Positions 8,701 to 27,677 of a stretch of DNA of 64,000 nt are shown in pieces. Position numbers and translations under genes: made by a program. A model generated the notes under the pieces. It was not told the origin of the DNA. It saw only the letters and a list, made by a program, of their open reading frames with translations, and did no database searches. Each line of letters begins with the position of its first letter. Position 1 is the first letter of the stretch. The stretch lies in the IMG/VR virus record IMGVR_UViG_3300010885_020782, positions 1 to 64,000 of that record. One strand, given 5' to 3'. The stretch is from a virus.

Positions 8701-11700
8701 ATGAGTTATTCAGAAGATGTGACAACTAGAACGGTCAAAGGCCAATTTACTAAGGTAAATGGTCTTCCCGCTTCTGGAACTGTCACTTTCTCTGCATCTG
8801 GAAAGATTACAGATACTAATGATGCAGTAATTTTATCAGGGCCTACACAACTTGAATTAGATAATACTGGTGCATTCAGTATTGATTTACCTACAACTGA
8901 TAACAGAGCGCTGTCGCCTGTCGGTTGGTATTACACAGTTCGCGTCCGTGTTTACGGAGCAAAAGCATACAACTTTGACTTCTACTTACCAGATAATGAT
9001 GGTAGCGATGTAGATATTACAAATGTTGACCCAGTAAGTGGAGCAGTTGCATCTCAGGCTGCGGTATCTGTTCCTCGCGGTTCAGTGGGTCCACAGGGTG
9101 CCACAGGTCCTACAGGTTTAACAGGTGCGACTGGACCAACAGGTATACCTGGCCCAGCAGGTGGACCAACTGGTCCAACTGGCCAACGCGGTCTTGTTGG
9201 TGCAACTGGTGCTACAGGAGCAACAGGTGTTCAAGGTGCTCAAGGTATTACTGGACCACAGGGTGTTGTTGGACCTACAGGTGCTCAAGGCATTCAAGGA
9301 AACACTGGTGCGACTGGTGCGACTGGTTCACAAGGTATTCAAGGAATTACTGGACCTACTGGTTCCACAGGTTCTCAAGGTATTCAAGGTGTTCAAGGTG
9401 TTCAAGGAATTACAGGACCTACAGGTTCACTTGGACCTACAGGTGCTACAGGTGCTGCTGGTACTTCTGTAACAATTTTAGGTTCTTATGCAACATTAGT
9501 TGCATTGCAAGCAGCACATCCAACAGGAAATCGTGGCGATAGTTATATCGTTGCAGGAAACCTTTATGTTTGGGATTCAGTAAATTCTCAGTGGAGCAGT
9601 GTTGGAAATATTCAAGGTCCAACAGGTTCTGTTGGTCCTACAGGTGCAGTTGGTGCTACTGGTGCTACTGGTGCAACTGGACTTACTGGTGCAACTGGTT
9701 CACAAGGTATTCAAGGTCCAACTGGTGCAACTGGTATTCAAGGTATCCAAGGTGTTGTTGGTGCCACAGGTGCACAAGGTGCAACAGGTGCACAAGGTAT
9801 TCAAGGCAATGTCGGACCCACTGGCGCAACTGGTCAGCAAGGTATTGTCGGTGCAACTGGTGCGACTGGTGCAAAAGGTGACATAGGTGATACTGGTCCG
9901 ACGGGTGCAACAGGTGCAGCAAGCACAGTTGTGGGACCGACAGGTGCAACTGGTGCGACTGGTGCGACAGGTTTAACAGGTGCTACTGGTGCGACTGGAT
10001 TAACAGGTGCGACTGGATTAACAGGTTTAACAGGTGAAACTGGTGCTACGGGAGCGACGGGATTAACTGGTGCGACGGGTGCAACTGGATTAACTGGTGC
10101 GACGGGTGCAACTGGATTAACTGGTGCAACTGGACCTACAGGTGCTACAGGTGCGACGGGATTAACTGGTGCTACTGGTGCGACTGGATTAACAGGTGCG
10201 ACTGGTGCGACAGGTTTAACAGGTGCTACTGGTGCGACTGGATTAACAGGTGCGACTGGATTAACAGGTGCAACTGGTGCGACAGGTTTAACAGGTGCTA
10301 CTGGTGCTACTGGTGCGACTGGATTAACAGGTGCGACTGGTTCTACTGGATTAACTGGTGCAACGGGTGCTACTGGTGCTACTGGACTTACTGGTGCAAC
10401 TGGACTTACTGGTGCTACTGGTGCGACGGGTGCGACAGGTTTAACAGGTGCTACTGGTGCTACTGGTGCGACGGGTGCGACATCTACTGTTGCAGGACCT
10501 ACAGGTCCAACTGGCGCAACTGGTCAGCAAGGACAAGGACTTGCAATTGCAGGTTCTTACAATAGTCAAGCAGAATTAGTAGCAGCACGTCCAACAGGCC
10601 CAATAACTCAAGGTGACTCTTACCTAATCCAAGGAAACCTTTATGTTTGGGATGAAACATCTTGGATAAATGTAGGTAACGTTTCTGGACCTACGGGTGC
10701 AACTGGATTAACTGGTGCAACTGGTGCAACGGGTGCGACTGGTGCGACAGGTCTATCAATTACGGGCCCAACGGGTGCGACTGGTGCAACAGGTCTATCA
10801 ATTACGGGCCCAACAGGTTCTACTGGTGCGACTGGTCAATCAGGTGCATCAATTGTTCTCAAGGGAAGTGTTGCAACAGCAGGACTTTTACCAACAGTTG
10901 GTAACTCAATTAACGATGCATACATTGTTGATGCTGATGGTGATATCTATGTATGGAATGGAACATCTTGGACTGATGCTGGTCAGATTGTTGGACCCAC
11001 AGGTTCTACTGGACCGACAGGTCGCTATGGAAGATTTGCTTTAGAGTCATCAACACCACCAGCAAACCCACAAAGCGGTGATTCATGGTTTAACAGTCTT
11101 AATGGAAAAGTTTATGTTTACTACGATTCTTACTGGGTAGAAGTTGGTGCTGCTCCAATCGGGCCTACTGGTGCAGTTGGTGCTACGGGACCAACTGGTG
11201 CAAGTATTACTGGGCCGACTGGACCTGTCGGTCCGACTGGTCTATCAATTACTGGACCTACAGGAGCACAAGGAATTACAGGTCCTACTGGACAACAAGG
11301 TGTAGCAGGGCCAACTGGTGCGACTGGTGTACAAGGTCCAACAGGGCCTATTGGTATCACTGGTGCACAAGGTCAAACTGGTATTCAAGGTATTCAGGGA
11401 GTTACAGGCCCAACGGGGCCACAAGGAATTACTGGGCCGACTGGTGCACAAGGTATTCAAGGTATTCAAGGTATTCAAGGAATTCGAGGTCTAACTGGTC
11501 CACAAGGAATTACAGGGCCTCAAGGTTTATCAATTACTGGGCCACAAGGAATTCAAGGTATTCAAGGTATTACTGGACCAACTGGTGCACAAGGTATCCA
11601 AGGAATTACTGGGCCGACTGGACAGCAAGGAATTACTGGACCAACAGGCATCCAAGGTGAAATTGGTCCAACTGGACCACAAGGAATTCAAGGTATCCAG

Positions 11701-12459
11701 GGAATTACTGGGCCTAGTGGTACACAAGGACTACTTGGACCTACAGGCGCATCTGGAATTAAAGGAGATACAGGTCAGGGCCTCTTTATTTCTGGTTCAT
11801 ATGGAGTCTACGGAGTATTTATTGAAGAACGTCCTACAGGTTTTGCTGGTGAAGCATATATTGTTGCTGGTGACTTGTATGTTTGGGATGCTATTAACGT
11901 TCAGTGGTCAAATACAGGTCGTTTCCAAGGACCTACAGGTCCTCAAGGCAATGTAGGTCCAACAGGAAACCAAGGTATTACAGGCCCAACAGGGCAAGTC
12001 GGTGCCACTGGTGCAACTGGCGCCTTTGATTATGGCAGTTGGAATACATACACCCCTGTTTGGACTGCAACAAGTATTAACCCAACTCTTGGTAATGGAA
12101 CTATCTTTGGTAAGTATGTTCAGATGGGTAGATTGATTAAAGGAAATCTATTTATTATTGCTGGCTCAACCACCAACCGTGGAAATGGAACATATAGAAT
12201 TACACTCCCATTCACAGCGGTGAGCGGTATGCGAAACATTGAACCAATAGGAACTGTATCAATGAGAAGTATTAGCACTGGTAAAAATTTCTTTGGAACA
12301 GCCGCTATTAATAATGATGATAGAACAAAAATTGAATTGTTCATTCATACTCAGGTAGCGGTTTATGCAGAAGGACTACCTGCAAGCCATACTGACCCAT
12401 TTACATTTAATGCTAATGATGAAATTATTGTTTCATTTATGTACGAGAGGACGGTCTAA
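8701..12459 (+). CDS. Collagen-like fibre protein 1 (long G-X-Y tracts interrupted by small beta knob modules)
   Basis: N-terminal Ig/anchor-like domain; roughly 700 residues of [12 protein letters not shown] triplets; knobs of type GSY...PTG..GD.Y...G.LYVWD...W...G.I.GP; C-terminal beta domain. Confidence 0.9.
9943..10482 (+). repeat. 60 consecutive Gly-X-Thr triplets (mainly GAT/GAT/GLT) with only one Pro
   Basis: Counted from the translation; 540 nt of ggtgc(a/g/t)ac(a/t/g) and gg(a/t)ttaac(a/t) units. Confidence 0.95.
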
Positions 12460-27100: not shown

Positions 27101-27677
27101 ACTACCTAATTGGTTTTTAGCAGTAGATGGGCCAGGAATTTTTGAGCGTCATCTATCTTCAAAAAGAATGGAAGAAATTCATTGTTTGCAGGTTGGAGCC
27201 TATAAAGGTGATGCATCTGTATGGCTTATTGAAAACATACTATTTCACCCAAAATCTACATTAACTGATGTAGATACCTGGGGAGGCTCTAACGAGGTTG
27301 CTCACGACTCTCTTGATTGGAATGAAGTAGAGCAAGCCTATAATGCTCAGACAGGTTCCTATGTTGAGTCTGGTCGAATTATTAAAAAGAAAATGACTAG
27401 CGATGAGTTTTTTGCAACTAAAGATTCAAAAAGTCTATACGATTTTATTTATATAGATGGTGACCATGAAGCAGTTCCTGTTTTAAAAGACGGTATGAAT
27501 GCTGTAGAGGCTCTTAAAGTAGGCGGTATTTTGGCTTTTGATGATTACCAATGGGATGCAGGAAAAGGTCCAGCCTACCGACCAAGAGCAGCAGTTGATG
27601 CAATAATGCTCTGCTACTCAAATCGTTTTAAAGTATTAGAGATAGGACTACAAGTTTGGTTAGTTAAGATTTCTTAA
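27093..27677 (+). CDS. Class I SAM-dependent methyltransferase (Methyltransf_24-like), coupled to the GT2-TPR gene
   Basis: LQVGAYKGDAS, VDTWGGS, YDFIYIDGDH, LKVGGILAFDDY; start overlaps the upstream stop. Confidence 0.88.
   Translation: MTELPNWFLAVDGPGIFERHLSSKRMEEIHCLQVGAYKGDASVWLIENILFHPKSTLTDVDTWGGSNEVAHDSLDWNEVEQAYNAQTGSYVESGRIIKKKMTSDEFFATKDSKSLYDFIYIDGDHEAVPVLKDGMNAVEALKVGGILAFDDYQWDAGKGPAYRPRAAVDAIMLCYSNRFKVLEIGLQVWLVKIS

Follow-up and report, generated by a model that had tools for sequence, protein, structure and literature searches.

Predicted O-Glycosylation of Collagen-Like Fibers in an Uncultured Lake Phage of Actinobacteria

Why would a phage that builds collagen-like fibers also carry a glycosyltransferase (GT) coupled to a methyltransferase (MT)? 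This question is raised by IMG/VR virus record IMGVR_UViG_3300010885_020782, of which positions 1 to 64,000 were analyzed here; this 64,000-nucleotide stretch, referred to as the window, makes up the leading half of the record, which comes from an uncultured virus, measures 127 kb, and is ~95% complete. The window encodes four collagen-like proteins, the longest of which is P0001, as well as a GT2-TPR glycosyltransferase, P0007, and its partner MT, P0008 (Table 1). The first-pass annotation had proposed that the phage makes long glycosylated, possibly O-methylated, collagen fibers. O-glycosylation of the fibers, probably accompanied by O-methylation of the sugar and with the fiber collagen as acceptor, is judged here to be the best reading, in which moderate confidence is placed; its basis is fold, domain architecture, and conserved gene linkage, rather than chemistry. 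Protein folds, an SgtA-like architecture, and linkage to collagen genes all spoke for the earlier proposal, while two of its parts, namely an implied single operon joining fibers and GT and a possible sugar-extending role for a gene at position 30188, found no support or lost ground.

P0007 is probably a protein O-glycosyltransferase of the SgtA type (named after the C. difficile enzyme), as suggested by its modeled structure and its sequence. Its catalytic region is recognized by PF00535 (E 2e-9), and the DTGSTD and D87-x-D89-E90 motifs are invariant in 34 sequences (invariant residues D37, D42, D87, D89, E90, and H147), while TPR Pfam families are found in many of its homologs. The AlphaFold2 model (pLDDT 94.8) combines a GT-A sheet with helical repeats spanning residues 176 to 361. 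Foldseek placed SunS and ThuS first, with full-length matches at E 1e-17 to 1e-15 (E 3e-17, TM 0.66, ~380 aligned columns), followed by wall-teichoic-acid and polysaccharide GT-A enzymes at ~1e-7. In sequence searches of the PDB, the only matches below E 0.01 were SunS, GmaR, and ThuS, all of them peptide or protein glycosyltransferases. Neither sequence nor model contains a signal peptide or membrane segment. Confidence that P0007 is a protein glycosyltransferase acting on some virion or fiber protein is higher than that placed in collagen as its acceptor.

The probable glycan acceptor is P0001, whose 243 Gly-X-Y triplets fall into 14 runs separated by small knob modules, Thr occupying the Y position in 154 triplets. 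Its longest runs, of 61, 34, 33, 31, and 27 triplets, are uninterrupted, as in PF01391 collagen proteins. A recount of the translation of positions 9943 to 10482 returned 60 Gly-X-Thr triplets out of 60 with one Pro, exactly as first described. The accompanying description of four collagen genes dominated by Gly-X-Thr was correct for three of the four PF01391 genes (154/243, 49/83, and 19/36 triplets), while the fourth reaches only 7/22. Outside the window, the minus strand of the remaining half of the genome has a fifth, short collagen-like open reading frame with 391 residues and 11 triplets (G000:C1:120059-121234).

Conserved motifs and the modeled fold (pLDDT 93.4) identify P0008 as a metal-dependent class I O-methyltransferase. 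Its Gly-rich motif and acidic metal-binding residues (G35, G39, D122, D150, and D151) are invariant, and its top structural match is the mycobacterial sugar O-methyltransferase MeT1, with norbelladine O-methyltransferase, CCoAOMT, and MycE also retrieved. The margin is small (2e-10 for MeT1 vs 3e-9 for catechol-type O-methyltransferases), so that methylation of the transferred sugar by P0008 is only probable. The GT also has an MT as its partner in relatives of the window phage and in an actinobacterial chromosome. In the window, the two genes overlap by 8 nucleotides: the MT starts with a GTG codon 8 nucleotides inside the GT gene and just downstream of AAGAGG, and MT homologs align from residue 5, indicating that this start is right. 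Together with the confirmed Pfam families, these features bear out the earlier statement that the GT2-TPR gene is translationally coupled to an S-adenosylmethionine (SAM)-dependent methyltransferase.

Gene neighborhoods in other phages point to the acceptor. An IMG/VR scan with P0007 yielded 80 loci, 54 of which contain a collagen gene; its distance from the GT is at most two genes in 35 loci, compared to 13 expected by random placement, and the two directly adjoin in 19. In the lineage of the window (layout A), a structural block is followed by the GT, the MT, and a convergent WhiB gene. In layout B, the gene for a small phrog_1084 protein comes first, then a collagen gene (71 to 126 triplets) and three GT2-TPR paralogs in tandem. 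The podovirus-like layout C runs from the major head protein through small genes, phrog_1084, a collagen gene (~80 triplets, ~85% Gly-X-Thr), and an optional GT25 gene to the GT2-TPR and SU10-type adaptor genes, the GT being embedded with overlapping reading frames between the fiber and adaptor genes. Layout D, that of Actinomycetia phage DSL-LC01, comprises two collagen genes, a baseplate-like gene, a tryptophan-halogenase-like gene, and the GT. In DSL-LC01, two genes stand between the collagen genes and the GT; in two other phage layouts, a Gly-X-Thr-rich collagen gene is its immediate neighbor.

A second sample was anchored on the adaptor gene rather than on the GT, and comprised 48 loci with at least 3.5 kb of upstream sequence. 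The slot before the adaptor holds a GT in 47 of them, namely GT2-TPR in 30 (20 of which also have GT25) and an unrelated GT-B enzyme (PF00534) in 17. A collagen gene of at least 30 triplets is found upstream in 41 of the 48 loci, including 27 of the 30 with GT2-TPR, and the sole locus without a GT also lacks a collagen gene. The GT-B occupant, which has the same length as GT2-TPR, is found in a sister clade (L193:4929-5987, L196:4452-5504, and ~15 other loci). Exchange of GT-B for GT2-TPR between collagen and SU10-type adaptor genes is a nonhomologous replacement, and such a swap of GT class at a fixed slot of a structural operon argues for a virion target, being hard to reconcile with DNA or the host surface as targets. 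The GT25-family protein, which has 192 to 194 residues, is encoded between the collagen and GT2-TPR genes in those 20 loci (e.g., L033:3949-4533); this family also includes animal collagen galactosyltransferases.

The same association extends to bacteria. A profile scan of species-representative bacterial genomes returned 80 loci with 40-55% identity, mostly from spore-forming Clostridia and Bacilli. Among 76 bacterial loci, a collagen-like gene is located within 8 kb of the GT in 42 and directly adjoins it in 26; in 33 loci it is no more than two genes away, compared to 15.4 expected even given its presence. For scale, PF01391 was matched in only 4 of 14 control genomes. Independent distribution of GT2-TPR and collagen genes, the outcome named in advance as speaking against fiber glycosylation, is thus not what is seen; the tie between this family and collagen-like genes is strong both in phages and in bacteria. 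Gly-X-Thr richness, on the other hand, is usual among prokaryotic and phage collagen-like proteins and therefore is not special in itself. It was discarded as evidence for the GT target, as it does not discriminate (mean Thr of 0.71 beside GT-B vs 0.85 beside GT2-TPR), and bacterial collagens adjoining GT2-TPR range from ~20% to 94% Thr.

These sequences, domain folds, catalytic motifs, and linkages suggest a scheme whose acceptor protein, acceptor residue, sugar, methyl acceptor, and benefit are all put forward conditionally. P0007 would act as a soluble cytoplasmic O-glycosyltransferase, with its GT-A domain catalytic and its TPR domain binding the substrate, and would take a host nucleotide sugar during infection. 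The sugar would be transferred to Thr (perhaps Ser) at the Y position of the Gly-X-Thr repeats in the fiber chains, probably before these zip into triple helices, after which P0008, produced by translational coupling and dependent on a metal, would methylate a hydroxyl of the attached sugar. The resulting virions would bear long glycosylated, O-methylated collagen fibers, for which the candidate benefits are helix stability, shielding from proteases or adsorption, and receptor contact.

Several observations weigh against this scheme, beginning with the locus itself. The fiber block had been described as directly followed by the GT, but six structural genes and a conserved terminator intervene: the GT lies 8.2 kb from the last collagen gene (17815 to 26012) and apparently has its own promoter. 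The terminator-like hairpin that ends the structural block is the best such site between positions 8400 and 28300, and a hairpin with a differing stem sequence is kept before the GT in relatives L004, L008, L010, L012, and L014. Likewise, a TANNNT hexamer 5 to 6 nucleotides upstream of the GT start is kept in five diverged relatives. From the conserved hairpin and hexamer, GT-MT is inferred to be probably transcribed separately, as a leaderless mRNA from a promoter with a host-type -10 element, so that the implied shared operon of fibers and GT does not stand.

Linkage in the window lineage and elsewhere adds to these difficulties. The constant neighbor of the GT in this lineage is WhiB and not the fiber block, which is located elsewhere in relatives L015, L019, and L020. 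In loci L236 and L240, the GT adjoins a LamG-like, Thr-rich (14.5% T) fiber that is not a collagen, and no long collagen gene is seen in 6 of the 47 GT-bearing adaptor loci within the sequence at hand. In the jumbo phages PaBG, Lu11, and Erwinia pEa_SNUABM_3, GT2-TPR homologs (27-34% identity) lie beside DNA ligase and head-protease genes; each of these phages has several collagen genes away from the GT, which is weak evidence since the base rate was not measured. Genome-level co-occurrence of GT and collagen is weak evidence in general, because the loci compared are phylogenetically nonindependent and because such phages commonly carry collagen-like genes. A GT of the P0007 type occurs in 73 of 50,697 deposited phage records, whereas collagen-like tail-fiber families are many in PHROGs; as a rule, therefore, phage collagens probably do without GT2-TPR, which weakens the idea that a glycan would be needed to stabilize the Pro-poor helix. 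In a WhiB-anchored scan, nearly all relatives of the window with enough sequence had the GT, leaving no GT-less control for contrast within the lineage.

The genes that accompany the GT in the window lineage are variable and include MT24 (Methyltransf_24), tryptophan-halogenase-like, sugar epimerase/dehydratase, second GT-A, and cytidylyltransferase-like genes; the epimerase/dehydratase and additional GT-A genes beside the GT of relatives count in favor of the glycosylation scheme. A tryptophan-halogenase-like flavoprotein (PF04820, E 4e-85) recurs directly beside GT2-TPR (L001:18436-20007 in DSL-LC01, L290:6436-7878, and L305). A 142-residue cytidylyltransferase-like protein (PF01467; PHROG heptose-1-phosphate adenylyltransferase-like) precedes GT2-TPR with overlapping frames in relatives whose fiber block is located elsewhere (L015:2804-3232, L019, L020, and L028) and hints at an unusual activated donor. 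Three tandem GT2-TPR genes occur in L016, L017, and L029, and two or three in L116, L123, L125, and L163. Such tandem paralogs, some with a shortened TPR part, stand beside collagen genes in phages and Bacillota, and may add successive sugars.

The competing explanation that survives best, although it is considered unlikely, is that GT-MT glycosylates other virion proteins (the Thr/Ser-rich 1106- and 1104-residue proteins, the capsid, or the tail) and that nearness to collagen merely reflects a position within the structural module. The nearest upstream genes of the window GT do encode noncollagen structural proteins, the LamG-like fibers of L236 and L240 set a comparable example, and mycobacteriophage virions are reportedly glycosylated on capsid and tail proteins. 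However, direct adjacency to collagen is commonest in bacteria and in two phage lineages, and SgtA, the sole characterized enzyme of this architecture beside a collagen gene, acts on collagen Thr.

Slightly less probable still is that the enzymes modify something of the host, for example an envelope polymer or a collagen-like glycoprotein on its surface, and thereby block superinfection or keep progeny from sticking to debris, which is the role usually assigned to GTs of actinophages. Consistent with this idea, GT-MT is apparently transcribed separately from a host-type -10 element and is situated in a variable island beside WhiB, a homologous island of collagen, GT, and MT genes exists in a few genomes of the host lineage, and superinfection exclusion or DNA protection has been proposed for GTs of lake actinophages (PMC10202952). 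Yet GT2-TPR occurs in just 2 of 151 genomes of the host order, making a host collagen target rare, the podovirus-like GT is embedded in overlapping frames between fiber and adaptor genes, and P0007 is without a signal peptide or membrane segment.

Modification of a small peptide or metabolite, by glycocin-like S- or O-glycosylation or as decoration of a halogenated compound, is improbable to a much greater degree, even though the structural comparison ranks SunS and ThuS first and halogenase-like genes lie beside the GT in DSL-LC01, L290, and L305. The neighboring open reading frames of 96 and 128 residues contain no Cys, on which ground a glycocin system was rejected, and no transporter or leader-peptidase gene is present among the annotated neighbors; moreover, in the window phage no halogenase gene adjoins the GT, and it is the collagen gene that recurs as neighbor of the family. 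Finally, glycosylation of phage DNA by P0007 against restriction, although a standard suggestion in the actinophage literature, is barely credible and was rejected on fold, since P0007 is a GT-A plus TPR protein of the peptide-glycosyltransferase type rather than a GT-B enzyme like those of T4, a separate GT-B-like, T4 beta-glucosyltransferase-like gene in the replication operon is a better candidate, and the bacterial homologs adjoin collagen genes.

Fiber O-glycosylation thus remains the favored reading, and a bacterial counterpart of the whole gene set both counts in its favor and bears on its history. Two small freshwater Actinomycetota genomes (L089 and L090) carry an island with a secreted Gly-X-Thr collagen and two GT2-TPR genes (Table 1); in L089 it is situated on a 1.45-Mb chromosome and flanked by glutamate dehydrogenase and other cellular genes. 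The MT24 protein encoded between the two GTs of L090 is 53% identical to P0008, and the second GT2-TPR of the island is 47% identical to P0007. In a tree of 97 sequences, the GTs of L089 and L090 fall inside a clade of freshwater phages that includes the window GT (34 rows, SH-aLRT 97), with Bacillota as the sister group. With the GT in only 2 of 151 genomes of the host-like order, the actinobacterial set is an uncommon island that phages may have supplied, and host mimicry as a general rule was rejected on the same count. The island possibly represents a phage fiber cassette taken over by a cell. A broader picture is offered tentatively and, as a whole, is regarded as doubtful: glycosylated, sometimes O-methylated, collagen fibers would be common in aquatic phage particles, though unrecognized so far, and be built by a mobile fiber-plus-GT cassette in which the unrelated classes GT2-TPR, GT25, and GT-B interchange and which is exchanged with rare actinobacterial host strains, where it makes a secreted glycosylated collagen fiber of the cell surface; phage coat and host surface would share this glycoprotein chemistry by mimicry or by domestication of a phage fiber.

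The window phage is a large uncultured lake phage of actinobacteria, as follows from its WhiB-like regulator, family-A DNA polymerase, Sak4, PD-(D/E)XK nuclease, and SNF2 helicase, as well as from its nearest deposited record, DSL-LC01, which is of lake origin. The WhiB-like regulator in particular identifies the host as an actinobacterium. The G+C content of the window is ~42-45%. An origin from a T4-like cyanophage was suspected from the 1106-residue virion structural protein, which belongs to phrog_5838, common to cyanomyoviruses, and is 38% identical to its counterpart in S-PM2, but was ruled out by WhiB, the family-A DNA polymerase, and the closeness to DSL-LC01. No nucleotide-sugar gene, GT1, or second GT2 was found in the phage genome, so that the sugar donor must come from the host. 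Within the fiber block, the repeat protein encoded between the second and third collagen genes is probably a beta-propeller, judging from its repeats, and possibly serves as a receptor- or glycan-binding module; its counterpart in DSL-LC01 is annotated as photosystem II assembly factor-like.

Two further genes of the window had been considered as possible extenders of the glycan. The protein at 30188 had no match in Pfam, NCBIfam, or PDB sequence searches; in DSL-LC01, two homologs in the same operon flank a UDP-galactopyranose mutase gene. Its likeness to atlas clusters of T4 beta-glucosyltransferase, which is a lead only, and its place in the replication operon favor a role in DNA modification over one in glycan extension. 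The GT-A-like protein at 37672 is a possible second glycosyltransferase that may extend the glycan, and in relatives L273-L280 an Anp1-like GT-A gene stands directly beside GT2-TPR.

Table 1. Positions of the genes and signals discussed, in window coordinates unless a locus is named
Feature	Position	Strand	Evidence or description
Collagen-like fiber protein P0001, 1252 aa	8701-12459	+	PF01391 E 1e-93; tail-fiber PHROGs
Collagen-like fiber protein, 642 aa	12463-14391	+	PF01391 E 5e-26; 83 triplets, Y = Thr in 49
Repeat protein, 303 aa, ~7 'GKLATS.DG..WTQ.TSSFG' units	14395-15306	+	weak DUF6242 match
Fiber protein, 562 aa, short collagen runs and C-terminal globular domain	15511-17199	+	PF01391 E 2e-11; 36 triplets, Y = Thr in 19
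Small collagen-like protein, 179 aa	17276-17815	+	PF01391 E 1e-9; 22 triplets, Y = Thr in only 7
Six structural genes between collagens and GT	17838-25942	+	1106-aa virion structural protein, 112- and 111-aa open reading frames, 1104-aa Gly-rich/CBM_4_9 protein, 96- and 128-aa open reading frames
Intrinsic-terminator-like hairpin, 12 pairs and T-tract, ending the structural block	25957-25984	+	fold -30.9 kcal/mol, z -3.8
TAGACT, TANNNT -10-like hexamer, 6 nucleotides upstream of GT start codon	26000-26005	+	sequence
GT2-TPR glycosyltransferase P0007, 362 aa	26012-27100	+	GT-A ~1-170 (DTGSTD, DMD motifs) and TPR-like helices 176-361
Methyltransf_24 SAM-dependent O-methyltransferase P0008, 194 aa	27093-27677	+	PF13578 E 3e-12
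WhiB-like regulator, convergent with MT	27664-28194	-	PF02467 E 2e-16; WhiB-anchored scan; conserved GT neighbor in phage group
341-aa protein, replication operon	30188-31213	-	nearest named atlas cluster T4 beta-glucosyltransferase (0.94, PF09198; lead only)
GT-A-like protein, 277 aa, next to tail-spike genes	37672-38505	-	weak Anp1 match; atlas clusters named nucleotide-diphospho-sugar transferase
Actinobacterial island	L089:2498-9779, L090:1629-9779		order: secreted 935-1030-aa G-X-T collagen, two small genes, GT2-TPR, (L090: MT24), second GT2-TPR

Glycosylation of phage virions is known from few cases, and when lake actinophages carry GTs, the usual interpretation is DNA protection or superinfection exclusion. 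If fiber glycosylation is true, glycoprotein fibers are a trait of much of the abundant freshwater phage community, phages of acI/Nanopelagicales-type hosts among them, and would influence adsorption and host range as well as the stability of particles and their recognition by grazers or immune systems. A natural test would then also exist of the old idea that glycosylated Thr stabilizes proline-poor collagen helices, in a system of few components: a single GT, a single MT, and a single repeat substrate. A literature search for phage collagen O-glycosylation found no such proposal.

The separate elements have precedents. Freeman et al. are said to have reported in 2023 that mycobacteriophages glycosylate their own virion proteins with phage-encoded GTs; the targets there are reportedly capsid and tail-tube subunits, whereas collagen fibers are proposed here. 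The GPT repeats of BclA in Bacillus anthracis and B. cereus are decorated with O-linked oligosaccharides, O-methylated sugars (anthrose and 3-O-methyl-rhamnose) among their components, a precedent for both a glycan and a methyl group on a collagen-like fiber, although a multigene sugar pathway is involved. MeT1 of Mycobacterium hassiacum (PDB 6g80/6g7d), the best structural match of P0008, is an actinobacterial metal-dependent sugar O-methyltransferase with ~15% identity to it. SunS and ThuS (PDB 7msn and 7msk) resemble P0007 over its full length, with GT-A and TPR-like domains and an aligned DxD motif, but share 12-17% identity with it and are glycocin S-/O-glycosyltransferases that modify Cys or Ser of small bacteriocin peptides, whereas no Cys-bearing precursor peptide or export gene is found among the annotated neighbors of P0007.

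The closest parallel is the C. difficile enzyme SgtA, a protein of 358 residues with GT-A (1-260) and TPR (262-358) domains, whose gene adjoins bclA3 and which adds beta-O-GlcNAc to Thr of the BclA3 GPT collagen repeats in vitro (PMC7157674). Compared with this published description, P0007 is nearly equal in length (362 residues) and has the same GT-A plus TPR layout; in both cases, the enzyme is soluble, and its substrate (here a presumed one) is put together within the cell that makes it. The Gly-X-Thr-rich collagen gene beside sgtA has its like in the P0007 family, where a collagen-like gene frequently adjoins the GT. In addition, bacterial homologs of P0007 (40-48% identity) adjoin collagen genes in many spore-forming Bacillota. 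The differences are that the enzyme is here phage-encoded, that its presumed substrates are virion fibers, that an O-methyltransferase is its partner, and that its gene stands apart from the collagens. On balance, fold, architecture, and gene linkage make it somewhat more probable than not that phage particles have acquired collagen O-glycosylation of the SgtA/BclA3 type, here coupled with an O-methyltransferase.

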